From Okamejei kenojei (taxonomy: Eukaryota), in the NCBI GenBank assembly GCA_035221665.1, contig CM069174.1:3162001-3226000 (forward strand): 64,000 bases of DNA. Direction: 5' to 3'. A program made the translations under genes and the position numbers. This document shows positions 5,855-58,383 of the stretch, in pieces. How positions within the stretch are numbered: position 1 is the stretch's first letter; the number at the start of each line of letters is the position of its first letter. The notes beneath the pieces are model-generated. The model worked only from the letters and a program-made list of their open reading frames with translations. It was not told the origin of the DNA and did no database searches.

Positions 5855-6680
5855 GGTGACATTTCACAGAGTGCTGGAGTGACTCAGCGGGTCAGGCAGC
5901 ATCTGTGGAGAACATGGATAGGTGACAATTCAGGTTGGGACCATTCTTTAGACTGGAGGAGGGTGGCAACCCGAAACGTCACCTATCCATGTTTTCCACA
6001 GATGCTGCCTGACCCGCTGAGTTACTCCAGCACTCTGTGAAACGTCACCTATCCATGTTCCCCACAGATGCTGCCTATCCATGACTCGCTGAGTTACTCC
6101 AGCACTCTGTGAAACATCACCTATCCATGTTCTCCACAGATGCTGCCTGACCCGCTGAGTTACTCCAGCACTCTGTGAAACGTCACCTATCCATGTTCTC
6201 CACAGATGCTGCCTGACCCGCTGAGTTACTCCAGCACTCTGGGAAATGTTACCTATCCATGTTCTCCACAGATGCTGCCTGACCCGCTGAGTTACTCCAG
6301 CACTCTGTGAAACGTCACCTATCCATGTTCTCCACAGATGCTGCCTGACCCGCTGAGTTACTCCAGCACTCTGTGAAACGTCACCTATCCATGTTCCCCA
6401 CAGATGCTGCCTGACCCGCTGAGTTACTCCAGCACTCTGTGGAAACGTCACCTATCCATGTTCTCCACAGATGCTGCCTGACCCGCTGAGTTACTCCAGC
6501 ACTCTGTGAAACGTCACCTATCCATGTTCTCCACAGATGCTGCCTGACCCGCTGAGTTACTCCAGCACTCTGTGAAACGTCACCTATCCATGTTCTCCAC
6601 AGATGCTGCCTGACCCGCTGAGTTACTCCGGTACTTTGTGTTTTTAATTGTAAAACAGCATCTGCACTTCCTTGTGTTGA
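5855..6680. repeat. Penelope-like terminal repeat, head-to-head, with ~10 copies of a 66-bp tandem unit
   Basis: Unit GAAACGTCACCTATCCATGTTCTCCACAGATGCTGCCTGACCCGCTGAGTTACTCCAGCACTCTGT repeated ~5973-6630; inverted copy 5855-5950. Confidence 0.9.
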
Positions 6681-13715: not shown

Positions 13716-15086
13716 CAGTGGCTTGCAAAAGTTTTCATACCCCTTGAACTTTTCCACATTTTGTCACGTTACAACCACAAACGTAAATGTATTTTATTGG
13801 GATTTTATGTGATAGACCAACAGAAAGTGGCGCATAATTGTGATGTGGAAGGAAAATGATACATGGTTTTCAAATTGTTTTACAAATAAAAAACTGAAAA
13901 GTGTGGTGCGCAAAGGTATTCAGCCCCCTTTACTCTGATACCCCTAAATAAAATCCAGTGCAACCAATTGCCTTCAGAAGTCACCTAATTAGTAAATAGA
14001 GTCCACTTGTGTGTAATCTAATCTCAGTATAAATACAGCTGTTCTGTGAAGGACTCAGGGGTTTGTTAGAGAACATTAGTGAACAAACAGCATCATGAAG
14101 CCCAAGGAACACACCAGACAGGTCAGGGATAAAGTTGTGGAGAAGTTTAAAGCAGGGTTAGTTTATAAAAAAATATCCCAAGTTTTGAACATCTCACGGA
14201 GCACTGTGAAGCTGGATCCACATCATCCGAAAATGGAAAGAGTATGGCACAACTGCAAACCTACCAAAACATGGCCATCCACCTAAACTGACAGGCCGGG
14301 CAAGGAGAGCATTGATCAGAGAAGCAGCCAAGAGGCCCATGGTAACTCTGGAGGAGCTGCAGAGATCCACAGCTCAGGTGGGAGAATCTGTCCACAGGAC
14401 AACTATTAGTCGTGCACTCCACAAATCGGGCCTTTATGGAAGAGTGGCAAGAAGAAAGCCATTGTTGAAAAAAAGCCATAAGAAGTCCCGTTTGCAGTTT
14501 GCCACAAGCCATGTGGGGGACACAGCAAACATATGGAGGAAGGTGCTCTGGTCTGATGAGACCAAAATTGAAGTTTTTGGCCTAAATGTAAAACGCTATG
14601 TGTGGCGGAAAACTAACACTGCACATCACCCTGAACACACCATCCCCACTGTGAAACATGGTGGTGGCAGCATCATGCTGTGGGGATGCTTTTCTTCAGC
14701 AGGGACAGGGAAGCTGGTCAGTTTGATGGGAAGATGGATGGAGCCAAATACAGGGCAATCTTGGAAGAAAACCTGTTAGAGTCTGCAAAAGACTTGAGTC
14801 TGGGGCGGAGGTTCACCTTCCAGCAGGACAACAACCCTAAACATACAGCCAGAGCTACAATGGAATGGTTTAGATCAAAGCATATTCGTGTGTTAGAATG
14901 GCCCAGTCAAAGTCCAGAACTAAATCCAATTGAGAATCTCTGGCAAGACTTGAAAATTGCTGTTCACAGACGCTCTCCATCCAATTTTGCAAAGAAGAAT
15001 GGGCAAAAATTTCAGTCTCTAGATGTGCAAAGCTGGTAGAGACATACCCCAAAAGACTTGCAGCTGTAATTGCAGTGAAAGGTGGT
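13716..15086 (+). mobile_element. Tc1-family DNA transposon, frameshifted DD34E transposase, right end lost
   Basis: TA|CAGTGGCTTGCAAAAG left end; inner direct repeat at ~13909-13930; ORF pieces 14095 (MKPKEHTRQVRDKVV), 14312 ([19 protein letters not shown]), 14680 (QQDNNPKH...SPELNPIE, 34 residues between D and E); fused to a SINE at ~15086. Confidence 0.92.
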
Positions 15087-15288
15087 GACCTGCGTGGGTT
15101 TTCTCCAGGAGCTCCGGTTTCCTCCCACACTCCAAAGACGTACAGGTTTGTAGATTAATTGGCTTGGAGTGTAAATTGTCTCTAGTGTGTGTAGGATAGT
15201 GTTAGTGTGCGGGGATCGCAGGTTGGCACGGACTCGGTGGGCCGAAGGGCCTGTTTCCGCGCTGTATTCCTAAACTACACTAAACTAT
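15086..15288 (+). mobile_element. V-SINE 3' portion
   Basis: GTGACCTGCGTGGGTTTTCTCC...GGGCCTGTTTCCGCGCTGTAT tail. Confidence 0.85.
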
Positions 15289-15601
15289 TGTGAATTCGTC
15301 TTTGATAGTTTACTTTTAAAAGAAAGTATGTGACGATAATATTTTTTCTTTGTCTTTGATCTTATATTATTTCTTCTTAATATGTAATTACTTCTAATAA
15401 AAATATTTTACAAAAAAAAAAAAAAAAATGTCTGCATTGTCATTTATGTGATCAGATCTTAAAATGATCTGTGTTGATGGATGTCACTGGTCCCAAAGAA
15501 CTATTTGTATACGAAATAGGTAATACTCTTGATTTCCTGAAGAAACATCCAAAATAAATTAACTGGTTCTAAAGCAAAATGCTGGGAATCTGAAATTAAA
15601 G

Positions 15602-15890
15602 CGGGGTGGTACGGTGGCGCAGCGGTAGAGTTGCTGCCTCACAGCGCCAGAGACCCGGGTTCCATCCTGACTACGGGTGCTGTCTGTGTGGAGTTTGTAC
15701 GTCCCCCCCCCGTGACCCTCATGGGTTTTGCTCCGGTTTCCTCCCATACTCCAAACAACCACAGGTTTGGAGGTTAATTGGCTTTGGTAAAATTGTCTCT
15801 AGTGTGTGTAGGATAGTGCGAGCGTACGGGGTGATCGCTGGTCGGCACCGACTCGGTGGGCCGAAGGGCCTGTTTCCGCGCTGTATTCAG
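15602..15890 (+). mobile_element. V-SINE (HE1-like)
   Basis: Matches the SINE consensus from head to tail. Confidence 0.85.
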
Positions 15891-16339
15891 GTGATGAATT
15901 GGTTGTTCAGCTGCATTAATTTCCAATTGCTTATGATACGTTACTAAACACTACTCCAGCTGAAGTACAGAATATGCTTTTTATGTAAACTAATTTGAAA
16001 TGTTTCTTGGAGAGATTATCAAGTACTCTATACATGCAAGCCTTCATCCACCTGAAATAATTTCCATCTGTTCTTATATTTTGTTATTTTGCAAACGATT
16101 TTCTCTCGCCTCAGCTATATGGGTCACCTAAAATTCCGAGAGCAACTCTGAAGTGGGACCTATGGGCTCTCAATTTTCTCTTGAGATTTGCCCCGAGGCT
16201 ACTCTGATTGGCTCTTGTAATAGGAAACATCGTATTATTTATATGCAGGGTCGCAACAAATGTTTGGTGCGACTGGTATAGTAAGTTACTGGAGTGGGGT
16301 TTGTCTTCATCCAAATCAAGTGCTTTGCCTGCATTTATA

Positions 16340-16660
16340 AGGTCATAAGGATTGGAACAGAATTGGGCCATTCAGCCCATCGAGTCTACTCCGCCATTCA
16401 ATCATGGCTGATCTATCTCTCCCTCCTAACCCCATTCTCCTGCCTTCTCCCCATAACCCCTGACACCCGCACTAATCAAGAATCTATCTATCTCTGCCTT
16501 AAAAACATCCATTGACTTGGCCTCCACAGCCGTCTGTGGCAATGAATTCCACAGATTCACCACCCTCTGACTAAAGAAATTCCTCCTTATCTCCTTCCTA
16601 CAGGAACCCCCTTTAATTCTGAGGCTGTGACCTCTGGTCCTAGACTCTCCCAAGAGTGGA
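16340..16660 (-). mobile_element. CR1 LINE 3' end
   Basis: Minus frame RNFFSQRVVNLWNSLPQTAVEAKS. Confidence 0.85.
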
Positions 16661-17019
16661 AATGGTCCTGACCTCCCATCTACCTCATTGGAGACCCTCA
16701 GACTATATTTAATCGGACTTTACTGGACTTTATCTTGCGTGAAGCATTATTCTCTTCATCCTGTATCTGCACACTGCGGACGGCTCGATTGTAATCATAT
16801 ACTGTCTTTCCACTGACCGGATACCACGCAACAAAAAATGCTTTTCACTGTACCTCAGCACACGTGACAACAAACGGAACTGAACTAGGTTCTGATGTCC
16901 GTGAATGAATTGTTTTGCGAATACCTAGCTTATGTTTTCCCACAGAGCAGCCTGCAAAAAAATGCAAATTCAACACAACATTGCAAAGCAAAATGGTCTT
17001 GTATTTTTTTATCAAAAAA

Positions 17020-17320
17020 TTAATATAATTATTAAAAATAATATTTACAATGCAATAAAACGAACCCACCACCATAATACAAGACCAACAAATATCCTAA
17101 ATAAACTATTATACAACTATGTTACACTCCTTGTCCAGGATATATTCCACCCCCCGTGGTGCCCAGCGGTCCCGGAAATCCCCGTGTGTGCCCGTGGACA
17201 GCGCGTGTTCCCTCTCTCACCCCACCCGGGCGCGGACGTAACCCCGGAAAAGGGGGCAGGCAGCCGGCTCACCGCCTGGCGCCGTGACTCGCGGATGGCC
17301 AGCTTGGCTGCCATCTTGTT
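17020..17320 (-). mobile_element. Tx1/L1-type LINE 3' fragment
   Basis: Minus frames AKLAIRESRRQAV...RDRWAPRGVEYILDKECNIVV* followed by an AT-rich 3' region. Confidence 0.55.
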
Positions 17321-17758
17321 GGATGGGAGGGAATGCAGTTCTTGAATTTTAGAGCGCTGAACACTGAGCACATAACACAGCTTTAGATTGTGCAACTTGG
17401 TGCATGCTACGCGCAAACGCTGGGCATGCAGCAGCAGGACCATTCAGTGCAATGTACATTCGACATCGCTGCGCTGCACTGATGCGTAAACTTGCATTCA
17501 AGAAACGGCATGGGTTGTCAGACAGGAGAGCAGGTCCTAAGGGAAGGAAGCAGAACCACTCAAGTGTGAAAAGAAAGATGCCTTATTGGCATTACTGTTG
17601 AAGCGCCCATAGCAGAAGACAGCTATGGATTTATGTCTGAAGATATCATGAAACGGGGATGACCCATGAGAAGTTTTACGCAGCAATATGTGCGTAAATT
17701 CTAAATTAGCCGGAAATGTGAACGAAAGTGCATTCAAATATGCAACATCTTTTATAGA

Positions 17759-18180
17759 CACAGAGTGCTGGAGTAACTCAGCGGGTCAGGCAGCATCTGT
17801 GGAGAACATGGATAGGTGACGTTTCACAGAGTGCTGGAGTAACTCAGCGGGTCAGGCAGCATCTGTGGAGAACATGGATAGGTGACGTTTCACAGAGTGC
17901 TGGAGTAACTCAGCGGGTCAGGCAGCATCTGTGGAGAACATGGATAGGTGACGTTTCACAGAGTGCTGGAGTAACTCAGCGGGTCAGGCAGCATCTGTGG
18001 AGAACATGGATAGGTGACGTTTCACAGAGTGCTGGAGTAACTCAGCGGGTCAGGCAGCATCTGTGGAGAACATGGATAGGTGACGTTTCACAGAGTGCTG
18101 GAGTAACTCAGCGGGTCAGGCAGCATCTGTGGAAAAAAAGGATAGGTGATGTTTTGGATCAGGACCCTTCTTCAGACTGA
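17759..18180 (-). repeat. 66-bp tandem array (6 units) ending in a degenerate hammerhead-bearing Penelope terminus
   Basis: CACAGAGTGC starts at 17759, 17825, 17891, 17957, 18023, 18089; GACCCTTCTTCAG at ~18163-18176. Confidence 0.92.
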
Positions 18181-18787
18181 ACGTAGGGGGTGGGGGGTAG
18201 GAGGGGGGGGGGGGGAAGAACTGGAGGTAAGAAATGACCAGGACCAATCAATGTTGTCAACTGTGGTAGAGAGTAAATGACTAGGGTGGAGGAAGGGAGC
18301 AAGGTGGTAAAAGCAAAGGACATTCAAAGCAAGGACATCACCCTGAACCTTTGTAAAACATTGGTTTGGCTGCATCTACCCATTTCTGGGCGCCACACTT
18401 TCGAAATAATGTCAAAGCTTTGCAGAAGGGATTTAGCAAAACGACTGTGCAAATGGACTGAAGAAGCTGCCATTTGGAATGGAGGGGCTGACAGAGGGAT
18501 CTGATAAAGCTATTCAAAACCATAAAAAGCGGAGAGGGAGATGAGATCGTAAGAAACCTTTTTCCTTCAGTGGAGGGGTTGAGACCAGGGGAACAGAGAA
18601 TGATGGTGATTGGCCAAAAAAAACTGAAGTGAGATGAAGAAAGATATTTTCATCTCACGAATGGGTGGCACATTCTCCCCGAGACCGCGTGGGATTTCAA
18701 CGGGTGCTTCACAGCAGTAGAGAGCCAGGTTGCATGACGGGTGCTGTCTGTATGGAGTTTCTACCTTATCCCTCATGGGATTTATCC

Positions 18788-19191
18788 AGTCAGGTCAGGT
18801 CGGGGGGGGGAGTTCCCCCCGCCACGGGTACCATGTAATCCCGTGCTACCCGCTCCATGGTCGGATAGTTGGTGACTAAACCGTCTCCCCCACCTGGTTT
18901 GCCAGGTGAGGAGGGGGCTGTGGACCCCCAGCAGGACCAAAACTAGACCAGTCAAATGGCAGATGAGCCCCTAGCGAGCCAACGGCCATCCACACTTCAG
19001 TAGAAGTTGCGATCACTGTCGTACATGGCATAGTAAGGAATTATGATAAATCGCACATGTACCAACATCCTATACTTCCAGCGGTGGAAGTCGGCAGCAA
19101 CTGGAGGACAGAGATGTGTGGTGCGTCCGTCACCGTTCCCGTCGGAAACCAGCACCACTGTGTTAATGTTTTCAACGATGATGATGTTGAT
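18788..19191 (+). mobile_element. Unclassified ~400-bp retroposon with (GAT)n tail, inserted into a V-SINE
   Basis: SINE sequence on both sides; imperfect TSD GGATTTATCC / GGTTTTCTCC; GATGATGATGTTGAT tail. Confidence 0.6.
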
Positions 19192-20484
19192 GGTTTTCTC
19201 CGGGCGCTCCGGTTTCCTCCCACACTCCAAAGACGTGCGGGTTTGTAGGTTAGTTGGCTTCGGTAGGATTGTAGATTGTCCCCTAGTGTGTGTGTGTGTG
19301 TGTGTGTGTGTGGGATAGTGCTCGTGTGATCGCCGGTCGACGTGGACACGATGGCCGAAGGGCTAATCTCTAAAGTCTAAAGTAAAGAATGGTTCAGGTC
19401 ACGTTTGGTGGGAATGGTGATGGAGGCGGGAGAGCAGCAGTTCGTTAGTGAAATTAGATCAATTTGTGGGATTCAACAAAAGTATTTGAAAGAGAAAAAA
19501 AATTCCAGAGCTAGTTAGAGAAAGAGGGGTAGTAGGACTGGCTGGATAGCCAGTACAGCATCAGCGGACTGAATGGCCTCCTTCCTTGCCATAACTTCTG
19601 TGATTTTATAAGTAGCTTAATATATGCAGAGTGATGGACTATCCTTGAGTTCCAGAAGCTGGTAAGACATGGCTGGATAGAGAACTCTTAGAAATCTTAA
19701 GGTATGTGGTCTTCTCTGTAATTAGTTAGAGATAAAAGCTTTGCATGTAAATTCAGTTTGAAGTAGTGCGCTTTGCCACAAAAATTTTAAATGCAAACTT
19801 CTCAATTTTGCTCTTCAACCTCCTTAAGCACGGAGGACATGTATTTATTTTTACCAACTGATACCCAGAATACAAAAAAAAAGAGTCTAATGGGGAACAT
19901 TATGAAGAAGATGTTGACAGCAAGAACATTGCTCTTTTATCTTTGATCCGGATTTGAATCTTGCTAAGCGAGATCAAAGGCTACCCTCTCTTGAAGGGCT
20001 GATAAAAAGGTCTTAAATGAAGCTGAAATGGGCCAATTTGAATCAATTGCCCAGTAGATATGGATAGACAACACGAAGCTGGCCTTCCAATCAGCACAAT
20101 TGCCATTAGTTTATTAATCTCGATGGGAGAGTTATTAATAGCGCAGGAGGATGTATAATTCACGTTCGCCAAACACCAGCATCTTTCCAAGAATGGAGCT
20201 GAGCCTCAGGGTTGCAGCGTTGAAGAAACAAGTCGCACATTGATTATGACTTGTACTCGTGACTTGCTACTTCCCTGCAGGAAATGGCCACTCCAATCAC
20301 TCGAGGGCAGCACGGGGGCGCAGCGGTAGAGTTGCTGCCTCACAGCGCCAGAGACCCGGGTTCCATCCTGACCACGGGTGCAGTCTCTATAGAGTTTGTA
20401 TTGTGATCCGTGTGGGTTTTCTCCGGGTGATCCTCCCACGCTCCGGGTTTGTAGGTTAATTGGCTTCTGTAAAACTGCCCTGAT

Positions 20485-20820
20485 GGTGTTGCAGTCACAG
20501 TCACAGAGGCCGACGTCAGAACATCCTTCAGGGTGGTGAACCCTCGGAAAGCGCTTGGACCAGATGGTATACCCGGTCGAGCTCTCAAAACCTGTGCAGA
20601 CCAACTGGCTGGAGTTTTTGCGGACATTTTCAACCTCCCACTACTAAGGTCTGAGGTTTCCACCTGCTTTAAGGGGGTATCAATAATACCAGTGCCCAAG
20701 AAGAGTAAGGTAAGGCCTCAATGACTGTCGACCGGTGGCACTAACGTCTGTGGTGATGAAGTGCTTTGAGAGGTTGGTTATGGCGCAAATCAACTCCTAC
20801 CTCAACAAGAACCTGGCTCT
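20485..20820 (+). mobile_element. Rex1-type RT fragment
   Basis: VNPRKALGPDGIPGRALKTCADQLAGVFADIFNL...IIPVPKK. Confidence 0.85.
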
Positions 20821-21519
20821 CAATCAGGGCCGGATTTAGATGAAGAGAGGCCCTAAGCTGTTCCACTTGTGAGCCCCCCCCCAAATTCCCCACACCCACG
20901 ACTAGAGGAAGATGGAAGAGTCCACCAGATTGACACAGATTTGCAGCCGAGCGTGGCCAATGAGATAAGGGGCTGGAAAGCTGCGCGTTATTTATTTATT
21001 GCCAGTGCTAGTGTCGAGTCATCGGCTTAAAACACTACTATTCTGAAATGGAGGGCAAGGAAAATTACTGAAGGGTTGTTCAGAGACTACAGTGGGTTGT
21101 GACAGCATATGTAAGAAAGGCCTATGACAGAGTCGCAAATATTATACACCCTTGCAGGGCTCTCACTTAATTTTTTGTTCTCTGTTGCCAGCGGGGCAAC
21201 CGTGGCAGGTTTTTAAGTTGCCAAATGACAGTTTAGGTGGTCAGTTAAAACGGCTTGCATGACACGTGCGATAATGTGCTCGGACGAAGTGCGTAGTTAC
21301 CAGTCGGAATTGTGGTCAATGAAGCATTCACATATTATTTCTGCTCCAAATAAAGTCACAAACTAAACATATTCACCAATCAAGACATGATATATACCAC
21401 AATGACATGCAGCAAAATTATAATACAGTATCTCAACTCTTTTTACACGTTGCAATTAATGCAATTTCTATTATCTCTTTCCACTTCCAATCAAAAATAT
21501 GGTTATTCAGTGTATAATC

Positions 21520-22365
21520 AACCTCGGTGAGATCAAGCGCAGGCTTGGCGATCGCTTCGCACAACACCTCCACTCAGTTCGCAATAACCAACCTGATCTC
21601 CCGGTGGCTCAACACTTCAACTCCCCTTCCCATTCCGAATCCGACCTTTCTGTCCTGGGCCTCCTCCATGGCCAGAGTGAGGCCCACCGCATATTGGAGG
21701 AGCAGCACCTCATATTTGCTTGGGTAGTTTACACCCCAGCGGTATGAACATTGACATCTCCAATTTCAGGTAGTCCTTGCTTTCTCCCTCCTTCCCCTCC
21801 CCTTCCCAGCTCTCCCACAGCCCACTGTCTCCGCCTCTTCCTTTCTTTTTCGTGTGTGTCCCCCCCCCCCGACATCAATCTGAAGAAGGGTCTCAACCCG
21901 AGACGTCGCCTATTCCTTTGCTCCATAAATGCTGCCTTACCCGCTGATTTTCTCCAGCCTTTTTGTCTACCAATGGGATCCCACCGCTGGCCACATCTTC
22001 CCATCTCCTGCCCTGTTGGCTTTCTGCAGAGACCGCTCCCTCCGTAACTCCCTGGTCAATTTGTCCCTTCCCACCCAAACCACCCCCTCTCCTGGCACTT
22101 TCCCTTGCAACCGCAGGAGATGCTACACTTGTCACTTTACCTCCCCCCTTGACTCCATTCAAGGACCCAAGCAGTATTTCCAGGTGCGGCAGAGGTTCAC
22201 CATGGCCAGAGTGAGGCCCACCGTAAATTGGAGGAGCAGCACCTCATGTTTCGCTTGGGCAGTTTACGCCCCAGCGATATGAACATTGACCTCCAATTTC
22301 AGGTAGTCCTTGCTTTCCCCTCCCCTTCCCAGCTCTCCCTGAGCCCACTGTCTCTGCCTCTTCCT
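21520..22365 (+). mobile_element. Penelope-like element fragments (GIY-YIG region and terminal repeat, tandem)
   Basis: GEIKRRLGDRFAQHLHSVRNNQPDLPVAQHFNSPSH; PGTFPCNRRRCYTC; degenerate hammerhead at 21880-21907. Confidence 0.85.
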
Positions 22366-22736
22366 GGGCATGCATATCTCTGAAGATCTTTCATGAACCC
22401 AGCACACTGATGCAATTATAAAGAAAGCACATCAAAACCTTTGAACAGAGACGGACTGAGCGTGCCCTTTATGTGCGCACACTACTATGTTTACAGCTAA
22501 CAGCATCAATTTATTCAAAATATAGACCATTTAAAAGGTGAAGGAAAATAAAACGATGAGGAAACTAATGCAGTTTAGCTCATGCTGAGCCAGGCATTTT
22601 CACCAGGAAGGCAGAGAATGGACAATAGTTACCCACTAAATGTCCATCTCAGTTATTGACAGCAAAGTGCTCACTCTGTCTTGGAATAGCATTGCGACTG
22701 CAAGCAGCCCTATCAAAAATAAACACACAAACAGTA

Positions 22737-23040
22737 GGCGGCACGGGGGCGCAGCGGTAGAGTTGCTGCCTCACGGCGCCAGAGACCCGGATTCCATCCC
22801 GGCTACGGGAGCTGTCTGTATAGAGTTCGCACATTGTCCCCGTGACCTGCGTGCGTTTTCTCCGAGATCTTCAGTTTCCTCCCACATGTACAGGTTTGTA
22901 GGTTAATTGGCTTGGTGTAAATGTAAACTGTCCCTAGTGTTTTTTAGGATAGTGTTAGTGTGCGGGGATCGCTGGTCGGTGCGGACTCGGTGGGCCGAAG
23001 GGCCTGTTTCCACGCTGCATCATCTAAACTAAACTAAACC
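22737..23040 (+). mobile_element. V-SINE (HE1-like)
   Basis: Consensus match with (AAACT)n tail. Confidence 0.85.
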
Positions 23041-23427
23041 CGATCACTGTGGTTGTCATCTTTCCTTTACTGATGCATTTTTAATACTTTGCATCCCGCT
23101 GCAAGCCGTTGGAGATGCAGCCTTCTCCAGAGAAGGACTAGAGTTCTCAACTCCCATCTCAATGTCCTCGTACAGATATTAATGTTAAAGTACGAGCAAG
23201 GAAACAATGATGTATTATTTAGGCTTCATAGACTTGTCTACTTCAAGGAGACCCACTTAAAACGAGCCAAGGGTTTTGTTTGACAACATTTTAAATCAAG
23301 AAGGATTTGTTCGGGTATTTTTTGTCAAGCTGAGAGTAAGTGTCTCTGATCTGGCCACTGGATTGAGAATACTTTTGCGTGCCGATCCTCCTGACCTTTG
23401 CCCTTCGGCACTCGTCAAACAAATGAC

Positions 23428-23727
23428 GGCACGGTGGCGCAGCGGTAGAGTCGCTGCCTCACAGCGCCAGAAACCCGGGTTCCATCCTGACTACGGGCGC
23501 TGTCTGTACGGAGTTTGCACGTTCTCCCCGTGACCTGCGTGGGTTTTCTCCGAGATCTTTGGTTTCCCCTCACACTCCAAAGACGTGTAGGTTTGTAGGT
23601 TAATAGGCTTGGTGTAAATGTAAAATTGTCCCTGGTGTGTGTAGGGTAGTGTTAGTGTGCGGGGATCGCTGGGCGGTGCGGACTCGGTGGGCCGAAGGGC
23701 CTGTTTCCATCTAAACTAAACTAAACC
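23428..23727 (+). mobile_element. V-SINE (HE1-like)
   Basis: Consensus match with (AAACT)n tail. Confidence 0.85.
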
Positions 23728-25624
23728 AGATCACTGTTGTTGTCATCTTTTCTTTGCTGATGCATTTTATAAGAAAAGGGATTGAAGACTAAGTCAAAGT
23801 CAAGGAGGGTCATTGACATGAAATGTTAACTCTGATTCTCCTCCACAGATGCTGCCTGGCCTGCTGAGTATTTCCAGCATCTGCAGTTGTTTGCTTCAAT
23901 AATTTTGTCCTTGACCGCAATGTTTCTTTTTTTTCCGGTTGTACTGCTGTCAATGTTTTCATATTTTGTCACCTTAATATGACAAAATCCCTCTGTTTCT
24001 GCAAACTTTCTTCATTGTAGCAAATATTATTATTTTTGAACTGAAAATATAACCAAACGAGCTCGCAGCTCCACTGTGGTCATGGACGATCACTTGTCTT
24101 TTCTATTGTAGCTCATAGACTTGATAACATAAAACGCTCTCATGACTTTGTTCCTCAGGCTGCATTATATTTGGCTGCAAGTCTCGTGCAGAATTCATAC
24201 GCCTGTCGACAGGGTTGGATATTTCCACTAGGATGATAGTTCCCTTGGTCGGGATGTCTGGGACCAGGGACCACAGTCTCAAGATATTCAGGACTGAGAT
24301 GAGACCATCGTCCACAGGTCATTTGAGCAGAATTAGGCCATTCGGCCCACCGAGTCTATCTTTCCCTCTCAACCCCATTCTCCTGCCTTCTTCCTGTAGC
24401 CTTTGACACCCGTACTAATCAAGAATGTGTCAACCCCCCTCTTAAAAATACCCACTGACTTGGCCTCCACCGCCGTCTGTGGCAATGAATTCTACAGATT
24501 CACCACCCTCTGGGTAAAGAAATTCCTCCTAATTTTCCTAAAGATAGGTCCTTTAATTCTGAGGCTGTGGCCTCTGGTCCTAGACTCTCCCACTCGTGGA
24601 AACATCCTCTCCACATCCACTCTATCCAGGCCTTTCACTATTCTGTAAGTTTCAATGAGGTCCCCCCTCATCATTTCTAAACTTCGGTGAGTACAGGCCC
24701 AGTGCCGACAAACGCTCGTCATATGTTAACCCACTCATTCCCGGGATCGTTCTAGACGATGAGGAGAGTGAGAAGGAACCCTCCTTGTGCGGGAAGCTGC
24801 AGAGAGGAGGATGGGGGGAGTCGGCAACGGCGGCGGGCTAGGGGCCCGGTGAGAGGAACCGGGGAGGGGGGGTCTGACCTTCCCCGCGCTCGAGGTTAGC
24901 TGCAGGAGGCGCCCGTCCCCCAGGGAACGAGTGCTGGCGGGGGCCGGGCGAGGAGAGGGACAACGGACTGGAGGCGACGGCTGCAACGGGCCTTCGTGGC
25001 CAATTGTAGCTGGGGACTGGGAAATGGCCCCAAACCCTGGCCACTCTTGTATACAGACTCAGTGGGCATGTTCTACATAGAAACATAGAAAATAGGTGCA
25101 GGAGGAGGCCATTTGGCCCTTTGAGCCAGAACCACCATTCAATGTGATCATGGCTGATCATCCCCTATCAATAACCCATGCCTGCCTTCTCCCCATATCC
25201 CTTGACTCCGCTATCTCTATCTAACTCTCTTTTAAATTCATCCAGTGAATCGGCCTCCAATGCCCTCTGTGGCAGGGAATTCCACAGATTCACAACTCTC
25301 TGGGTGAAAAACGTTTTTTCTCATCTCAGTTTTAAATGGCCTCCCCTTTGTTCTTGAACTCTGGCCCCTGCGTCTGCACCCTCCCAACATTGGGAACATT
25401 TTTCCTGCCAGTCCTTTTTTTTCTGTGCATTCTGTGGTGACCGTTGGATTGTGCTTTTTTCCCCTGATAGTCTTCTTGGGCTGGATGCAAAAACTATATT
25501 TCACTGTACCCTGGTACATGTGGCAGTAAAGAAACCAGTGGGTAATGTGGGTTACATTGTGGCTGTGGGCACTTTTGCAAAGGGTTGTAGGAGGGTGGAA
25601 GATATCAGATGCAATTCCAGGACT

Positions 25625-26100
25625 GGTTTATTAACAAGGTTAATTCCCGGGATAGCGGGACTGTCATATGCTGAGAGAATGGAGCGGCTGGGCTTGTACA
25701 CCCTGGAGTTTAGAAGGATGAGAGGGAATCTCATTGAAACATATAAGATTATTAAGGGTTTGGACACACTAGAGGCAGGAAACATGTTCCCGATGTTGGG
25801 GGAGTCCAGAACCAGGGGCCACACAGTTTAAGAATAAGGGGTAAGTCATTTAGAACGGAGATGAGGAAACACTTTTTCTCACAGAGAGTTGTGAGTCTGT
25901 GGAATTCTCTGCCTCAGAAGGCAGTGGTGGCCAATGCTTTCAAGAGAGAGTTAGATAGAGCTCTTAAAGATAGCGGAGTCAAGGGATATTGGGAGAAGGC
26001 AGGAACGGGGTACTGATTGTGGATGATCAGCCATGATCACATTGAATGGCGGTGCTGGCTCGAAGGGCCGAATGGCCTCCTCCTGCACCTGTTGTCTATT
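25625..26100 (+). mobile_element. CR1 LINE 3' end
   Basis: TRLIPGIAGLSYAERMERLGLYTLEFRRMRGNLIETYKIIKG. Confidence 0.9.
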
Positions 26101-26129
26101 GGCCAATAATCCACATGCCAGCAGGCAAT

Positions 26130-26660
26130 GTGGGCATTGTTGTGGACATCCAGGCCAGGACAGCGTCAGTTACTGGGTGGATGGCCTTGATGCCCCCAGG
26201 GAAACGCCTAGGTGAGCAGTCATTCACGATGTGTGGGATGGTCTGGTCTGGATGTCCGCAGTCACAAGCAGGGCTGTCTGTCATCCCCCACTTACGCAGG
26301 TGATGGGCTGTTCTTGCATGGAGGGTGCGGATTCTGTTCAGCGTTAGCCATTGCCTGCGATGGAGGTCAAAACCCGGTGGTTTCACTGTAGGGTCTGTGA
26401 TGACCTCTCCGTTGTAGGTGTTGGCATCTTTCCAGGCTCTGTGCCACTCAGTCTCGGAGTCAAAGTTTCCCAGAGATTTGACGGAAGACCAGAAGGGTTT
26501 GCGGGACTTCAGGCACATGTTGGGCAGATTGTTCAAGTCAGCGTGGATGGGAAGGTCAGGGTTGGCCTCGATGATGCACCAATGATCATTTGGCTGGTTT
26601 GGTTCTTGCTGTGGTCTAGTGATCTCCCAACCATGGAATCTCCTGAAGAGAATGAGGCAT
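26130..26660 (-). mobile_element. Vingi/Ingi-like LINE C-terminal fragment with zinc knuckle
   Basis: Open minus frame DLPIHADL...LKSRKPFW...PPGFDLHRRQWLTLNRIRT...WGMTDSPACDCGHPDQTIPHIVNDC...GGIKAIH...AVLAW. Confidence 0.7.
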
Positions 26661-26707
26661 GCGTGACTTGTTTTTATAAAGGGGTTGATGATCGCCCCCC
26701 CCCCCCC

Positions 26708-26710
<3 letters not shown>

Positions 26711-26774
<64 letters not shown>
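26711..26774. repeat. (CA)n microsatellite
   Basis: Direct reading. Confidence 0.98.
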
Positions 26775-26779
<5 letters not shown>

Positions 26780-27089
26780 AAAAACCCTGCTGTCATCTCG
26801 TGGAGTTAATGCACTGACAATGCAGTGTCTTTTTTATTCCACATTTGAATTAAAAACACTAGCTGCACCCTCACCTAACCCCCCCCCCCACCCCTACCCC
26901 CCCCCCCCACCCCTACCCCCCCCCCCCCCCCCCCTCGATTGTTTCGTTCAAAGTCAACCTCTCCATCCTTTGCAAGAGTCCAGTTGCAATGAGCATTCCG
27001 TGTGAGCAGGCAGGTGGGATTGAATATTGGACAAAGATCGGTGGAGGAGATCAAATGGTGCATGTCAGCCTGCATCTCAGTAGATAGCC

Positions 27090-27603
27090 ACTCCAGTTAG
27101 CCTCCCTCCCTCCTTCCCGACGCACACACACACACACACACATCACAGCGAGCCGCCGGGAAGAGCTCGCTCGTTGCTCTCTGCTCCGGCTCCCACAGTC
27201 AAGCGGCTGCTGATGATCCTGTGCCGAGGCGGACGTGGGGACGAGCTCTGCTTAGCCCTGGCTGATGAGTGCGAGGAGCCTGCCATTCATCTGAAGCGGC
27301 AGATGCTCGAATAGGGGACCTGCGAGTGAATCCTGTGTATATATATATATCTCTCCCCACACACGCACACATACACACACGCACAGCAGAGCAGAGCCGT
27401 GAGACTGCGAGGAGCTGCAAGCGCTCTCCTCTCTCCTCTTCTCTCTCCTCATCCCTCATCCTCCTCTCTCCCCTTCCTATCTCCCCCATCCTCTCCTCCT
27501 CCCCTCTCCCATCCTCTCCTCTCCTCCTCTCTCCCCCATCCTCTCTCCTCACCTGCTCCGCGCTCATTCCTCTCCGGTCTCTCTCCCCGGAGGCTGCGAC
27601 CCG
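27090..27603 (+). promoter_or_regulatory. Probable promoter / 5' UTR of the ASIC gene
   Basis: TE-free, CpG-containing region directly upstream of the ATG, with (CA)n, (TA)n and a long CT-rich tract (27424-27552); transcription start cannot be placed from sequence. Confidence 0.45.
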
Positions 27604-28161
27604 ATGGATTTGAAAGGGGAGCCCGAAGATGCGGAGAGGACGCCGCCTTGCAGCGTGCAGGCTTTCGCCGGCAGCTCCACTCTGCACGGAATCAGTCACA
27701 TCTTCACCTACGGGCGCCTGTCGTTCAGGCGCGTCGTGTGGACGCTGGCTTTCCTGGGCTCCCTGTCCTTCCTCGCCCACGTCTTCGTGCAGAGGGTGAG
27801 ATACTACCTGGAGTACCCGCATGTCACCAAGCTGGACGAGATCAGCGCCTACAACCTGACCTTCCCGGCCGTCACCATCTGCAACCTCAACGAGTTCCGC
27901 TTCAGCAAGATCACCAAGAACGACCTGTACCACGCCGGCGAGCTGCTGGCGCTGCTCAACAACAAGTTCGAGATCCCCGACCCCTACGTGGCGGAGAAGC
28001 ACGTCCTGGATGTCCTGGTGGAGAAGGCCAACTTCGGCAACTTCAAGCCCAAGCCCTTCAACATGAGGGAGTTCTACGACCGGGCTGGCCATGAGATGAA
28101 GGACATGCTCCTGGACTGCAAGTACCGAGGCAAAGAATGCACCCACCAGCAGTTCCATGTC
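27604..28161 (+). CDS. asic1: Acid-sensing ion channel (DEG/ENaC family), first coding exon, 186 codons; ASIC1/ASIC1c-like 'a'-type N-terminus
   Basis: [10 protein letters not shown] (HG gating motif), TM1 [72 protein letters not shown]; strong GC3 bias; phase-0 donor GTC|GTGAGT at 28161/28162. Family assignment is firm; the paralogue is uncertain. Confidence 0.93.
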
Positions 28162-29380
28162 GTGAGTACCGCCCGCCAGGCCATGAAACTTTCCCTCGCG
28201 TCCTTGTGGGCTGGGCTCAGAGCAAAGTTGCTCGGATTGTGTTTGTGGGGCGTGCTCTTGTTTGGAGGCCCCACTCCAGTTTTGTCTGAGGCGTTTTTGG
28301 GGGGTGGGGGGATATGTATGTCCCAAACATTGCCTTGTTGCTGATTTTGACCCCTCCCCATATTCCTCCTCCGCTGGTGTTGTAAGGAGCAGTGTGTATT
28401 GTGTGTTGTTGTTGTGTCTCTGGCCTTGCCTCTCTCTCTGTGTCACGGCGACCATTATGTAGCACATGCTGGACTTGCACGGTTTGGGGGAAGGGGTGGC
28501 TGAGCCTTCGGTTTGTGAGGAGAGTGGGCAAAAAAAGTCATTAAAAAAAAACCACACAAACAGTGTTCAAACTGAAATAGAAGCCAAATGTCCATCTCGG
28601 GCCAGGCTCGGGGTTGTTGGGAAAATGCCTGTGTTAACGGGATTAGGAGGCCTACCAGTCCCTCCCATCACAGCCAGGGCTGCATGAGGAGCAGCCGAGA
28701 ACACATTTCAACAGAGCATGCAGCTAAAAGTGAAAGCTTACTGACAGCAGTGGCTACAATGTTACACATCTACATGCAACCTTCCAAGACATGGAAGTGC
28801 AGTAGCATGGATAACCATCAGCAAAGCTCCAATCAGCTTGTACAAGGATTGGGGGTGGGGTTGAGAGATTTGCAGATTACAATACAGTGAATTCCCACTG
28901 GAACATGGGAGGGAGGAACTAGGGTGAGTCCAGCATTGAGGCCAAGGTGTGCTGTACATTCTTGAATCAAGCCTTCTCCGTAAACAGGTCTCTCATTTGC
29001 GGAGATAACAAGATATCTTACTTTGTTTAAAACTGACATTGTACGTGTGTGCGTGTAAACACGGGTGACTGCTGTCATACATGTGGCTTGTTGGTACTGC
29101 TGTGATTCACCCCACTAAAGCAGCTTTTCCACCCAGGCTGGTGACCTCAGTAAGGGATTGACGAGAGCTTTCTGACATGTGCAATGAAGAGCTGAGGATG
29201 GTTTCAGAGGGTTAACTGTCAGGAGTAAATCATGTGCTTCTCAGTAAGATGTTCAGGGACAGCCACCTTGCTTTATCTGCATGTGTTACTTCAATGAGAT
29301 CTGTTTAGAAGTCGACGACAAACTTTGACGCAGACTTTCTTTCTGCACCTCCAACAGAGGGCCTTGATGTGCCAAAATGT

Positions 29381-29562
29381 TTAAGAAGGAACTGCAGATG
29401 CTGGAAAATCCAAGGTAGACAAAAATGCTGGAGAAACTCAGCGGGTGAGGCAGCATCTATGGAGCGAAGGAAATAGGCAACACTTCTTCAGACCCGAAAC
29501 GTCGCCTATTTCCTTCGCTCCATAGATGCTGCCTCACCCGCTGAGTTTCTCCAGCATTTTTG
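29381..29562. mobile_element. Head-to-head Penelope-like terminal repeats (palindrome)
   Basis: AAAAATGCTGGAGAAACTCAGCGGGTGAGGCAGCATCTATGGAGCGAAGGAAATAGGC and its reverse complement around a collapsed hammerhead centre. Confidence 0.85.
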
Positions 29563-31686
29563 GCAGCCTTGATGTGCCAGATCTAATTCCCTGTCTGCTA
29601 TTGACCGGCCTTAAATCACTTTGACCTCGGAAAGTGAGAGCTATTAATTTACCAATAGTTCTTCGTGTAATTCCTCTTGAAATAATAAACCCTTGCCAGG
29701 GACAAACATACAAGTCCAAGAATCTTTTCCGCTATTCGATATCCAGAGCTTTGCTCTCCAGGCAGACACGACTGCAGTTTGCTGGATGAGGTGGGTGGCT
29801 TTGTCCTTGCGTTCCAAAGTAAAGCTGGACATAGTCCCACAGCCTGCCAGAGGGAAACAATAAAATCTCAAAGCAGAATCAGCGATTTGTTTTATATATC
29901 CCCCACCCTTCCAGTATACTTTATTCGTAACATTTGCGGATATTTAATCAAAATATCACCATTCACAATGCATCAGTCCATTTTGCTTAAACGAGTTACA
30001 TTATATCACCAGCTAGACAAAAATGCTGGAGAAACTCTGCGGGTGAGGCAGCATCTATGGAGCAAAGGATTCCTTCGCTCCAGAGATGTTGCCTCACCCG
30101 CTGAGTTTCTCCAGCATTTTTGTCTACCTTCGATTTTTCCAGCATCCGCCGTTCCTTCTCCTACATTATACCAGCATGTCACCCACTTTTCATCCACATG
30201 CATTCCCAGAACGGGAAGTCCAATGGACCACGAATTTAAGTTGGACGTTGCCTCCCTCCATCTGAGGGATGTGCTTGATGTAAGGGGGCTGCTTACGACT
30301 CAATCTTCATGACGCACACCTCTACAGTACTGGAGACATTGTTCCATGAGGTCGGGTTGGTGGGGGTGGAAAGGGGAAGTGAAAGGGCTGTCTCATTTGA
30401 TCGCCACAACCTGGCTCGCTGAGCGTTAATGAGAGTGCTCCTTTGCAACGGACGGCGTGAACGGCGAGCGGTGGGGGGGGGGGCTGAGGGCACTTGGACA
30501 CATGCTCAGGAACGGGTCCGGCATTGTCATCTGACTTTATTACAGACGGACCACCGTCGTGGAGGGGGCCTCATCAGGGGGTCTCGTGACGAGCGGAGGA
30601 GGCTTGGGTTTGGGATGGCCAGCATTTCGATTCACGATCCAGCAGTGATACTCAGAGACACCGCCACAGTGGTGGACGTCTTGGAACTTTTTCGTCATAG
30701 GGAAAGTCAATTTCTCAACCATTTTGGAGATTTTTCTTTAACCAGAGCCATTGAAGGATCAAGTGGAAAAAAAGGCAGATATATAGAGTTTGAATGCAGA
30801 GCAATTGTGATCTTGTTGGATGTGCAACACCCTGAAGAGGTCCCCCCCTGCTCCTGCTGTTGTGTCCATAGGTTTTCCCTGTGTTCCAAAGAACATAGAT
30901 TGTCTGCCGTACGTCCTCATCGTTGGGAAGTCTACCCACTGAAAACCCAATGAGGTGACTCAGCAGGAAAAGGGACAATCCCAGTCTCGATTCCCCTTGT
31001 CTAGTGACTCTCCGCCGGTGCGAGGGCGGAATTGGCAAGGTTTGTCATCCCTGATCATCGTCACTGCTCGAGCTGTGCCGCAAGTGGGCGCATGGATATG
31101 GGCTGGAGCCGGCGAGCTGCTGCATGTCCTGCTGCCATCGGGCCTTGCAGATGCAGCAGAGGTGGACATGGTGGTGTCTGTAATGGAGGGACTTAGTGAA
31201 TCACTAAATGAAATAAAGTGCCTCCATACCTTTTGCTGGTTCAAAAACGACATCACAGTCAAAGGGAAATTCTGGCTGCTGTGATTATGTTTTCAGAAAT
31301 TCGTTACTTCAGCTACCAGATTTGAAATGAAATACAGAATGTGACTGAAAGCACAATACATCTGTAATTACTGAAGAATTGCCCAGTGATTGATTGTTAC
31401 AAAGGGATGACATTGAGATTAAAAGTCAGATTTTTAAAAAACTTGTAAACTCATGAGGGACAGTTAACTTGGAGAAACCAAGGCTGTGCTTAATAACGTC
31501 AACAAACTGGTCCAGGGTAGAACTAGCAGAGAGATTCTGCTGCTTGAACCACTTTTTTGGTGTTCCTCTCATTGCAAGACACACATTTTGCCCAAAGACA
31601 GTGTCTGACCCTGGCCTGACCCAATCTACACCACAATTACCCTTTGCTGTGTGTTCCCTTTGAACTATACTCTATTGCACTTCACT

Positions 31687-31828
31687 TCTTCCTCCTGCGT
31701 ATGGCGTGCACAGCCTAAAGTTGTCGGACAACTTGTTCTATTTGATCTTATTTGATGGCGCACGCCGGGTTGATTGCATTCGTTGAAACAGGGCGGACCA
31801 CGTGAAGGTCGCAATCTTCCAACCCCCG
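31687..31828 (-). mobile_element. ~140-bp non-autonomous retroposon with a 5' HDV-like ribozyme (copy 1)
   Basis: TSD GCACTTCACT (31677-31686, 31829-31838); purine (AAG/AGG) tail; homologous to the copies at 46737 and 58243. Confidence 0.88.
31772..31827 (-). ncRNA. HDV-like ribozyme motif (copy 1)
   Basis: GGGGGUUGG AA GAUUGCG ACC UUCACGU GGU CCGCCCU G UUUCAA CGAA UGCAAUC; P2, P3 and J4/2 intact, P1 with an extra base. Confidence 0.72.
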
Positions 31829-46302: not shown

Positions 46303-46736
46303 ACTCTTCAGGCAAATGATCAGTTTGCTACCCTACCACAATTTAAAATTTTTGCATGTTATTTTTTAATTTTCTTTGCTGGTACATTAATATTCACAAA
46401 GAGGAGAACAACACTAATGGCACTCCGAATGTAACCGTGTTGAGAAGATGATACCACGCCCTCGTCTCCACAGGCACGATAAATTCAGGCTTCACTCCAT
46501 GAGCAGCTTCCAGCTATTTTCCTATCCTGTCGAGCCTCGTGACGGAAAGAGCAATTCTTCAAAACATTATGTTAAACTGCTTGTGTGGAAGTTAGCGAGT
46601 ATGTCGAAGTTGTGTTGGTAACTCATAGAAACATAGAAACAGAGAAAATAGGTGCAGGAGGAGGCCATTCGTGCCTTCGAGCCTGCACTGCCATTCATTG
46701 TGATCATGGCTGATCGTCCCCAATCAATAACCCGTG

Positions 46737-46790
46737 GGGGTGGACGATTGCAACCTTCACGTGGGCCGCCCTGTTTCGACTCATGCAATC
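46737..46790 (+). ncRNA. HDV-like ribozyme motif (copy 2)
   Basis: GGGGUGG AC GAUUGCA ACC UUCACGU GGG CCGCCCU G UUUCGA CUCA UGCAAUC; P1 with G1-U wobble, 7-bp P2. Confidence 0.75.
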
Positions 46791-46875
46791 AACTCGACGT
46801 GCACAAATGGAAGATCAAATAGAACAAGTTGTCCAACAACTTTAGGCTGTGCACGCCGCACGAAAGAAGAAGTAG
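46737..46875 (+). mobile_element. 139-bp non-autonomous retroposon with a 5' HDV-like ribozyme (copy 2)
   Basis: TSD AATAACCCGTG (46726-46736, 46876-46886); tail GAAAGAAGAAGTAG. Confidence 0.9.
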
Positions 46876-47389
46876 AATAACCCGTGCCTGCCTTCTCCCC
46901 ATATCCCTTGACTCCACTAGCCCCTAGAGCTCTATCCATTAAATCCACCCAGTGATTTGGCCTCCACTGACCTCAAGGCAGTGAATTCCACAAATTCACA
47001 ACTCTCTGGGTGAAAAAGTTTTTTCTCACCTCAGTCTTAAATGACCTCCCCTTTATTCTAAGACTGTGGTCCCTGGTCATTTTTCCTGCATCTAGCTTGT
47101 CCAGTCCTTTTATAATTTTATATGTTTCTATAAAATCCCCCACTCATCCTTCTAAACTCCAGTGAACACAAGCCTAGTCTTTTCAAATACAAGCCAAGTC
47201 TTTCCAAACAGTGAGATAACATTTCTGAGGCAGTTCAGTTGCACCTTCTTTGATTTTCCGTCTCCTCCCAGCCCAGAATGGATTATTCCGAGTAAACCCA
47301 TCCTTAGAAACGATTAATACATTAGCAAGGCTTCATTTTGATGACGTTATGAGAGGGATGGGCAACGCTTGTAATGGTAGTAATGCTGG

Positions 47390-50940: not shown

Positions 50941-51579
50941 TACTCTCTTACTCCACAGGACAAGGCGGTGAGGTGTGAGGACTGAGCAGCTCTGGGCTTT
51001 GAACTCACGATGTTGTCAGGTCAAGCAATTAAATTGCATGTTGGCTCACATCCCACTGCATAAAAGAATGTGTCAGCCGTTTCGCATTCTTAATAATGAA
51101 GGGTCAGCTCATCCAGAATCCATGATACAGAAAGGCCTTCACACGCAGCTGTGTTTGGACGATGTACACTGTCCCAGACTGGCACACAATGACTTGGCCG
51201 CATGGCCAACATGAGCAGAACTCCACCAAACTGACTTCAATTTGAAACCTAATCATTGTCACCTCGCCTTCTCGTTTATGACTATTACTAACAAAGGCAG
51301 CTCCTGCACGCTGCATATTTCAGCTTTTAATTCCCCAAAGTGCAAGTTGTGCAAAATTAATACCTGTCACTTGGCAGAAGCATCAGACGCCAGGAACCGA
51401 TCGCGTTTCGAGTGCGCTGCCCTGTGACATCCTCGTTTAATGAGCACAGCAGCCATTTGGAGCATTTTCAATCCTCCTTTGACTTGGGTTGACCAATTCT
51501 CTGCTTCAAAAAAGTGAAGGCTTTCTTTAATCACTCCATGCCCACGGCCTTTTGAGACTGACGAAGATGAGGATTGAAG

Positions 51580-52012
51580 ATTCTCCACAGATGCTGCCTG
51601 ACCCGCTGAGTTACTCCAGCACTCTGTGAAACGTCACCTATCCATGTTCTCCACAGATGCTGCCTGACCCGCTGAGTTACTCCAGCACTCTGTGAAACGT
51701 CACCTATCCATGTTCTCCACAGATGCTGCCTGACCCGCTGAGTTACTCCAGCACTCTGTGAAACGTCACCTATCCTTGTTCCCCACAGATGCTGCCTGAC
51801 CATTACTCCAGCACTCTGTGAAACGTCACCTATCCATGTTCTCCACAGTTGCTGCCTGACCCGCTGAGTTACTCCAGCACTCTGTGAAACGTCACCTATC
51901 CATGTTCCCCACAGATGCTGCCTGACCCGCTCAGTTACTCCAGCACTCTGTGAAACGTCACCTATCCATGTTCTCCACAGATGCTGCCTGACCTGCTGAG
52001 TTACTCCAGCAT
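51580..52012 (+). repeat. 66-bp tandem array (~6.5 units)
   Basis: Same unit as 5973-6630. Confidence 0.92.
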
Positions 52013-52479
52013 TTTGAGTGCATCTTTGCACCGTTCTGCCGTTGTACATTTTAGTCACATTGTATCTATCAAAGTTGTGCCAGGCGTTGAGGCAGGCGTG
52101 GAATCCCTCATGTCAACGCCGTACATAAGACAGACTTGGTCTAAATGTGTAGAAGCAAAGAACTGCAGATGCTGGTTTATATCAGAGATAGACACAAAGT
52201 GTCATGCATGCATTAGTGCGCCAATTCTCTGCATAAGTACTGTATAAGTATACACTGTATTAATTTGGGCTTGAATTTTCTAGTATTAACCCCGGTGGCC
52301 TACCTGAATATTTTTTATTTTCGTTTCCACTAATAAAATCCCACATCGCCCATGCAGGATTTATATTTTCATTCACTTTCCTTTAAGAATGCCAACAGGT
52401 CTTTCCAAATGCTCCCATCGGCCATCTAAAGCCTATGTCAGTGGTGCTGCTTCATGGAATGATGAGGTTTAGCTCATCC

Positions 52480-53374: not shown

Positions 53375-53830
53375 AACAAGGAACGGTAGATGCTGGAGAT
53401 AGACACAAAATACTGGAGTAACTGAGCAGGTCAGGCAGTGTCTGTCGAGAGAAGGAATAGGTAACGTTTCAGGTCGAGACCCTTCACCAGACCCTTTGTA
53501 GATGCTGGGCCAGATTTCTTTCCGATGCTGCCTGACCCGCTGAGTTACTCCAGCACTCTGTGAAACGTCACCTATCCATGTTCTCCACAGATGCTGCCTG
53601 ACCCGCTGAGTTACTCCAGCACTCTGTGAAACGTCACCTATCCATGTTCTCCACAGATGCTGCCTGACCCGCTGAGTTACTCCAGCACTCTGTGAAACGT
53701 CACCTATCCATGTTCTCCACAGATGCTGCCTGACCCGCTGAGTTACTCCAGCACTCTGTGAAACGTCACCTATCCATGTTCTCCAAAGATGCTGCCTGAC
53801 CCGCTGAGTTACTCCAGCACTCTGTGTCTT
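53375..53830. repeat. Inverted Penelope-like terminus plus 66-bp tandem array (~4.5 units, 53524-53826)
   Basis: Same unit; minus-strand variant hammerhead at 53463-53490. Confidence 0.9.
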
Positions 53831-54029
53831 ACATGGAATCATCGCTTGAAAGAAGGGGAGACGACTGGAGAACATAAGAAGATAGTTGTTACTTCAGTTG
53901 TAACGTTGCATTTGTACAATATTGTTCATTACCTCACTGGCATGGTAAATTATACCATGTGCAACGTGGAAGCAAGAAGAATTGAAGATAGGCAGATAGA
54001 CACAAAATGCTGGAGTAACTCAGCCATTT

Positions 54030-58242: not shown

Positions 58243-58383
58243 TTCCTCGTCTTCTTTTGTGGGCGTGCACAGCCTAAAGTTGTTGGACAACTTGTTCTAT
58301 TTGATCTTCTGTTTGTGCACGTCGAGTTGATTGCATTAGTCGAAACAGGGCGGACCACGTGAAGGTTGCAATCTCCTGCCCCA
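58243..58383 (-). mobile_element. ~140-bp non-autonomous retroposon with a 5' HDV-like ribozyme (copy 3)
   Basis: TSD TCACAATAGAC (58232-58242, 58384-58394); degenerate (AAG)n tail. Confidence 0.9.
58329..58382 (-). ncRNA. HDV-like ribozyme motif (copy 3)
   Basis: GGGGCAG GA GAUUGCA ACC UUCACGU GGU CCGCCCU G UUUCGA CUAA UGCAAUC; only one P1 mismatch. Confidence 0.8.

Follow-up and report, generated by a model that had tools for sequence, protein, structure and literature searches.

A sense copy of an abundant ribozyme-headed LINE derivative in a probable ASIC1 intron of a skate, and the likely neutral decay of its core

Introduction

Does a ribozyme-like insertion in an intron of a neural gene cut the transcript of its host, and has selection weakened it? 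The question is raised by a 64,000-nucleotide stretch of the genome of the skate Okamejei kenojei (GenBank assembly GCA_035221665.1, contig CM069174.1, positions 3,162,001 to 3,226,000 of the forward strand; G000:C44:3162001-3226000), referred to here as the window, which holds three copies of a short element whose 5' end is predicted to form an HDV-like ribozyme. An earlier note on the window had suggested that copy 2, which runs in the direction of an ASIC gene, could cut ASIC pre-mRNA and that selection may favour attenuated sense copies. The reading that we consider very probable is that copy 2 is one insertion, in a putative ASIC1 intron, of an abundant 139-bp bipartite Vingi-like LINE derivative with a predicted HDV-like head, and that its core mutations are likely neutral decay.

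Copy 2 starts at the predicted cleavage site

The insertion was delimited by its target site duplications (TSDs) and by versions of the site that lack the element.

46726..46736 (+), left TSD of copy 2, AATAACCCGTG, 11 bp; its final G is position -1 of the predicted ribozyme
46737..46875, element body of copy 2, 139 bp; G1 is 46737
46876..46886 (+), right TSD of copy 2, read from the sequence
about 46625..47186 (no strand assigned), host repeat that received copy 2, older and high-copy

Contigs of the host repeat from four public runs skip 46726-46875 and join 46725 to 46876, the 11 letters fitting on either side, and the fetched introns hold 60 empty-site-like matches with no more than three changes per 31 letters. 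From these joints and matches it follows that G46736 is target DNA and that the element starts exactly at G1. The earlier placement of the end of the left TSD at 46736 and of G1 at 46737 is borne out by both the sequence and the empty-site contigs. The site itself shows that copy 2 inserted into an older repeat and is flanked by a TSD of 11 bp. Tandem arrays of a 66-bp unit from a common repeat also occur in the window, in both orientations (5941-6769, 17693-18220, 51458-52147 and 53392-53955).

The head is predicted to fold as a minimal HDV-like ribozyme

The 5' end of copy 2 can be drawn as a double pseudoknot with the following parts.

46737..46790 (+), predicted 54-nt minimal HDV-like ribozyme without P4, from the sequence, pair counts and lesion scoring
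46737-43 with 46766-72, P1
46746-52 with 46784-90, P2
46753-55 with 46763-65, P3, with an A17.G29 mismatch at 46765
46756-62, L3
46758 with 46773, P1.1
46780, predicted catalytic C; 46782, site of A46C

In the numbering of the family head, P1 comprises 1-7/30-36 with a G1.U36 wobble, P2 10-16/48-54, P3 17-19/27-29 and P1.1 22/37, and J4/2 reads C44-N-A-A ahead of P2'. When 19 distinct heads were scored for this nested double pseudoknot with its G1.U pair, 96% of cells were paired, compared with 24-44% in slid controls, the structure having been derived from the very sequences scored. HDV-like ribozymes have a catalytic C followed by N-A-A in J4/2. The modal J4/2 of the family is C44-N45-A46-A47, with A46 present in 4,991 of 5,074 exact-core copies; copy 2 retains C44 and has A46C. 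The catalytic cytosine is named C57/C75 in PMC9901934. The P4 helix is absent from the family head, in which just 5-6 nt separate G37 and C44, and this fits the minimal subtype.

The covariation score of the family heads was reached by 79 of 500 shuffles, with one two-sided pair and with rows partly picked for changes at 17/29. Rfam gave no gathering hit across the window and no ribozyme family up to E=10 in loci L001 and L010. The HDV-like fold rests on perfect pairing and the motif match, and self-cleavage is predicted. A single one-mismatch match to a Vingi-2_Gav-type ribozyme motif was seen at locus L287 (G000:C2:142816791-142816817, -), where the surroundings resemble ORF1 of another LINE and P1 appears broken.

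The short element is derived from a Vingi-like LINE

Both parts of copy 2 have counterparts in a longer element, a fragment of which also lies in the window.

46737..46815 (+), 5' part of copy 2, homologous to the first ~72-79 nt of the parent Vingi-like LINE (L244, L224, L230)
46816..46875 (+), 3' part of copy 2: a ~14-nt linker, the last ~44 nt of the parent LINE (ORF end and 3' UTR) and a (GAA)n-type tail
26142..26479 (-), 3' fragment of the parent Vingi-like LINE, upstream of the ASIC1 exon; 87% to L059

Locus L059, which shares just the 3' 37 nt with the short element, pointed to a LINE whose 3' part gave 767 candidates and whose RT-proximal part gave 46. The same head, nested short copies aside, was found on 7 of the 25 loci examined from the RT-proximal search, and L244, a parent LINE copy of about 3.1 kb, has its start at this same G1. 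Over its first 72-79 nt the short element matches L244, L224 and L230 at 85-95%, and the last 37-44 nt are common to the short element and the LINE 3' end. This comparison shows the short element to be an internal deletion derivative in which a linker of ~14 nt joins the first ~79 nt of the parent LINE to its last ~44 nt. The shared 3' end suggests that it is mobilised in trans by the LINE protein.

The coding parts of the parent LINE, whose copies are degenerate, are APE-like, RT and CCHH-like. RVT_1 was matched at E=9e-29, Exo_endo_phos and zf-RVT were weak and below cut-off, and no match to RNase H was found in four fragments of L230. This architecture, a single ORF with APE and RT and without RNase H, points to a Vingi-like LINE.

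The exact core pattern occurs 5,074 times genome-wide, so that there are at least that many copies. Since the pattern is present in only 6 of 17 head-bearing copies of a four-gene set described below, total copy number is estimated at roughly 14,000-30,000. Locus L182 turned out to be a 5'-truncated LINE copy. At L236 and L239, short elements are inserted inside copies of their own parent LINE, and the head is inverted at L246, L228 and L232. One copy, in the NRXN-like gene on C43 (L247-L265), is an even shorter derivative, which has lost the middle ~35 nt but keeps the head, tail and TSD.

The exact junction at G1 is a family trait

TSDs of 7-14 bp flanked 77 of 90 full-length copies, a set that includes copy 2 and two duplicated pairs, and the other 13 had no detectable TSD. 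With a TSD caller that favours the longest match, the offset from TSD to G1 in these 77 copies was 0 in 57, +1 in 12, +2 in 7 and +4 in one. The exact junction at G1 is a trait of the family, parent LINE included. For R2 and its SIDEs, too, it is established that junctions fall at the cleavage site, now and then with bases added (PMC3774820). The base preceding G1 was T in 45 of the 90 full-length copies (29 of the 57 at zero offset), which suggests a target or junction preference.

The earlier note had described the junction of copy 2 as the one expected if the inserted RNA was a 3' cleavage product. That view stands insofar as a start at the predicted cleavage site is expected for a ribozyme-processed template, but the trait is family-wide and shared with the parent LINE, and so is no peculiarity of copy 2. 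By analogy with R2 SIDEs and L1Tc, source copies would be co-transcribed and their RNA cut at G1, and the LINE protein, acting in trans, would reverse-transcribe the cut RNA starting at the GAA tail. Such a sequence of events would account for the finding that the majority of insertions start at G1, or with 1-2 extra bases before it. The junction records the making of the source RNA and says nothing on cleavage in ASIC1.

A sharp 5' end could also arise if transcription began at a promoter inside the head, instead of or in addition to self-cleavage, and the Pr77 head of L1Tc is both promoter and ribozyme (PMC4035085). We regard this as unlikely, because the first base is G1 of a double pseudoknot that is fully paired and has a G1.U wobble and because R2, L1Tc and SIDER heads are cleaved at +1 (PMC4035085, PMC3774820).

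Copy 2 probably lies in sense within a long ASIC1 intron

The host gene was modelled from exon homology, and the other two copies were placed relative to it.

27604..28161 (+), ASIC1a-like first coding exon; donor GTGAGT at 28162
31688..31825 (-), copy 1, antisense, of an older subfamily; P1 mismatch and P2 G.U
58250..58382 (-), copy 3, antisense; P1 A6.C31 mismatch

Among solved structures, the best match of the exon at 27604-28161 was ASIC1 (E 1.7e-82, compared with 1.4e-68 for ASIC2). Further along C44, ASC-family exons lie on the + strand at 3588274 and 3645097 (alternative first exons) and then from 3680900 onward. Across 604 kb, exon 2 is matched only at C44:3680900, where the join is in frame. 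Given exon 1 on the + strand and this lone in-frame match, copy 2 would be sense and intronic, within an ASIC1 intron of ~490 kb, 18.6 kb 3' of the first coding exon and about 472 kb ahead of exon 2. The earlier claim that copy 2 lies in sense within an ASIC intron, unlike copies 1 and 3 on the minus strand, holds at the level of exon homology.

ASIC1 apparently has three alternative first coding exons, including those at C44:3588274 and 3645097 (+), over 455 kb preceding exon 2. At C31:26447279-26523774 (+), ASC first-exon matches lie opposite in strand to the ASIC2 body and ~0.9 Mb away from it, possibly in a misoriented segment.

The core changes of copy 2 resemble ordinary decay

Copy 2 departs from the family core at U29G (46765, P3) and A46C (46782, J4/2). 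In contigs from four public runs, none of which spanned the locus of copy 2 itself, T accounts for 94-98% of the depth at 46765 and A for >99% at 46782. One or both substitutions could be errors of assembly or consensus; T>G after GG is a short-read error motif, which the change at 46765 resembles. However, U29 variants recur on several subfamily backgrounds, and in other runs as well 46765 varies more than 46782, which makes such an error very unlikely.

Copy 2 had been singled out as the only copy with P3 and J4/2 substitutions. This is literally true among the three copies of the window, but copies 1 and 3 each have a P1 mismatch, and copy 2 is therefore not the sole damaged copy. Compared with the modal copy, it differs at 5 of 133 sites, and the probability that two or more of these fall within the 46 structural sites is 0.57. 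One of the five differences is a shared variant (11 of 59 loci), and the four private changes are all from A/T to G/C.

U29 was changed in 339 of 5,074 copies (64 C, 29 G and 7 A among the first 100 rows, by eye), and A46 in 83 (43 G, 23 C and 17 T). The U29 and A46 double variant was found in two copies, copy 2 among them, compared with about 0.5 expected if the changes were independent. Changes at 17 and 29 were compared for linkage: copies altered at 29 may more often be altered at its partner A17 as well (6/30 versus 1/29, p=0.10), and half of the linked changes were non-compensatory. Genome-wide, position 29 (window 46765) varies about four times as much as A46, mainly to C or G. Propagation of U29G as one subfamily was ruled out, the change being found on both CTAA and CGAA backgrounds, and a regional AT-to-GC bias behind U29 changes was unsupported (W>S versus S>W 60:19 compared with 52:23, p=0.37; flank GC p=0.38).

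On folding, the upstream flank of copy 2 pairs with its own P1 5' strand, at G1-G4. The effect of A46C on activity is judged from HDV ribozymes; the accessible text of PMC13635239 held nothing on the J4/2 adenines. P3 is highly sensitive to single mutations in the CPEB3 and HDV ribozymes (PMC9901934). Given this sensitivity and the predicted pairing of the flank with G1-G4, copy 2 is likely slow or dead as a ribozyme. After insertion it would have gained its private changes, with the P3 mismatch, the J4/2 change and the flank pairing leaving it in that state and with no special role in ASIC1. Its two core mutations are likely ordinary neutral decay and not tuning that protects ASIC1.

Relation to known ribozyme-headed elements

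Ribozyme-headed deletion derivatives are already a known kind. Drosophila R2 SIDEs, like the skate element, consist of an HDV-like ribozyme and a LINE 3' end only, with junctions at the cleavage site and occasional non-templated bases (PMC3774820, PMC3414825). They are confined to 28S rDNA and have an RLE-type partner, whereas the skate element is dispersed, with 7-14 bp TSDs and a putative APE-type partner. NARTc, RIME and SIDER of the L1Tc/ingi clade are likewise internal-deletion derivatives with an HDV-like head (PMC4035085). The activity of heads in this clade depends on the upstream flank, and SIDER2 has been proposed to affect host mRNAs (PMC4035085). These heads have P4, in contrast to the 54-nt skate head, which lacks it and occurs in a vertebrate. 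Minimal HDV-like and theta ribozymes also lack P4, but nearly 99% of them come from phages (PMC10879173), whereas here such a structure is predicted to head a vertebrate retroposon.

Vingi-1_EE resembles the skate element as a bipartite deletion derivative of a single-ORF APE and RT LINE without RNase H (Kojima 2018, PMC5786205), and the 5' end of Vingi-2_Gav in the supplement of that study has the same L3 loop, TTCACGT, when compared by eye. According to the same source, bipartite non-autonomous LINEs were reported only for RTE, Ingi, Vingi and R2; Vingi is missing from its list of ribozyme-bearing clades, and its main text contains no skate or shark family. In the literature covered, which lay outside subscription journals and Repbase, no vertebrate deletion derivative of Vingi type was found described with an HDV-like head that lacks P4.

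The mammalian CPEB3 ribozyme has an HDV-like fold and a sense position in an intron of a neural gene (PMC10274809), both of which copy 2 is predicted to share. Conservation across mammals sets CPEB3 apart, as does its distance of 9.9 kb to the next exon, which matches its half-life, whereas copy 2 is young, one of thousands, privately damaged and 472 kb before exon 2. The intact core of the CPEB3 type is lacking in copy 2, which has private lesions in P3 and J4/2. Copy 2 itself, a probable decaying passenger, is of little weight, and the family matters more.

Integrity and orientation in long neural genes

Copies were counted over a total of 1.52 Mb, made up of ASIC1 (568 kb), ASIC2 (449 of about 465 kb) and portions of two genes resembling neurexins (188 and 320 kb). 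A profile search of the four genes gave 17 head-bearing copies, and one degraded copy that shares flanks with another was left out. Three headless 3' pieces (one sense LINE end and two antisense; one is the split tail of a counted copy) were not counted.

Of the 4 sense copies, 2 had an intact core, with no broken pair or key base, as had 3 of the 12 antisense ones (Fisher p=0.55); the bias in core integrity that the earlier note had envisaged between orientations was not seen in these four long genes. Two sense copies have damage in P3, namely copy 2 and one in the C9 neurexin, and in each of them U29 is the altered base. Within ASIC1, all five antisense copies are lesioned, one of them lacking C44. 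A young sense copy in the same intron, at C44:3629177 (+, L142), 16 kb before the third alternative first exon, has zero core changes. This copy would be a better candidate than copy 2 for any cleavage of ASIC1 pre-mRNA.

These data bear on the proposal that copy 2 cut ASIC1 pre-mRNA and that selection favoured attenuating mutations. Copy 2 is indeed in sense and has two core lesions, and the 472 kb to exon 2 would give even a slow ribozyme time to cut. Splicing can suffer from a fast ribozyme in an intron but not from a slow one (Fong 2009, cited in PMC10274809). However, selection for attenuated sense copies is contradicted by the modal core of the sense copy at C44:3629177, by antisense copies that are damaged equally often, one even without its catalytic C, and by lesions in copy 2 that are placed as by chance. 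We therefore consider it highly improbable and retain neutral decay as the explanation of the core changes.

The counted copies comprised 4 sense and 12 antisense (p=0.077; 95% CI of the sense share 7-52%), or 4:13 with the duplicate included (p=0.049). Nine other repeat queries, which overlap one another and whose own sense strand was unset, totalled 1364:1405 (~49:51) in the first 1.40 Mb of the same introns. Regions were added once the early counts (3:12) were known, and the last copy added was sense. Within long genes the element may occur less often in sense than in antisense, which at p=0.077 is a lead only. Since the count leans antisense, sense copies may not be fully neutral.

Such a lean could arise if active sense insertions were purged whole from long introns, leaving an antisense excess, with the surviving sense copies in tolerant or self-inhibiting contexts. 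This is compatible with neutral decay of copy 2, and the impairment of splicing by fast intronic ribozymes makes it plausible. The 4:12 count in the four genes, the even split of other repeats in the same introns and the lack of a poly(A) signal or strong splice motif on the sense strand of the element speak for it. The p value and its interval, the addition of regions after the first counts, with a sense copy last, and the overlap of the control queries speak against it, as does one RT cluster (FADDTTVVG type) with no tested ribozyme that is also skewed, at 2 sense to 13 antisense (p=0.007). We hold purging to be possible, although tentatively and with the balance against it. Somewhat more doubtful is the wider proposition that more than ten thousand natural ribozyme insertions have been filtered by orientation, those in sense in long introns being purged about threefold for severing nascent pre-mRNA while other short repeats are not. 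If the skew is real, it would represent purging of sense insertions and not attenuated survivors.

What merits testing in the original idea is whether active sense insertions are purged. With thousands of near-identical insertions in both orientations, it can be tested whether co-transcriptional intronic self-cleavage harms host genes in vivo. Purging, if true, would provide evolutionary evidence on the scale of a genome for a fitness cost of intronic self-cleavage, and retained sense cases like CPEB3 would be expected to be rare. In ASIC2, the copies at C31:25186013 and 25277817 have common flanks and the second is heavily degraded, which suggests a local duplication or an assembly error.
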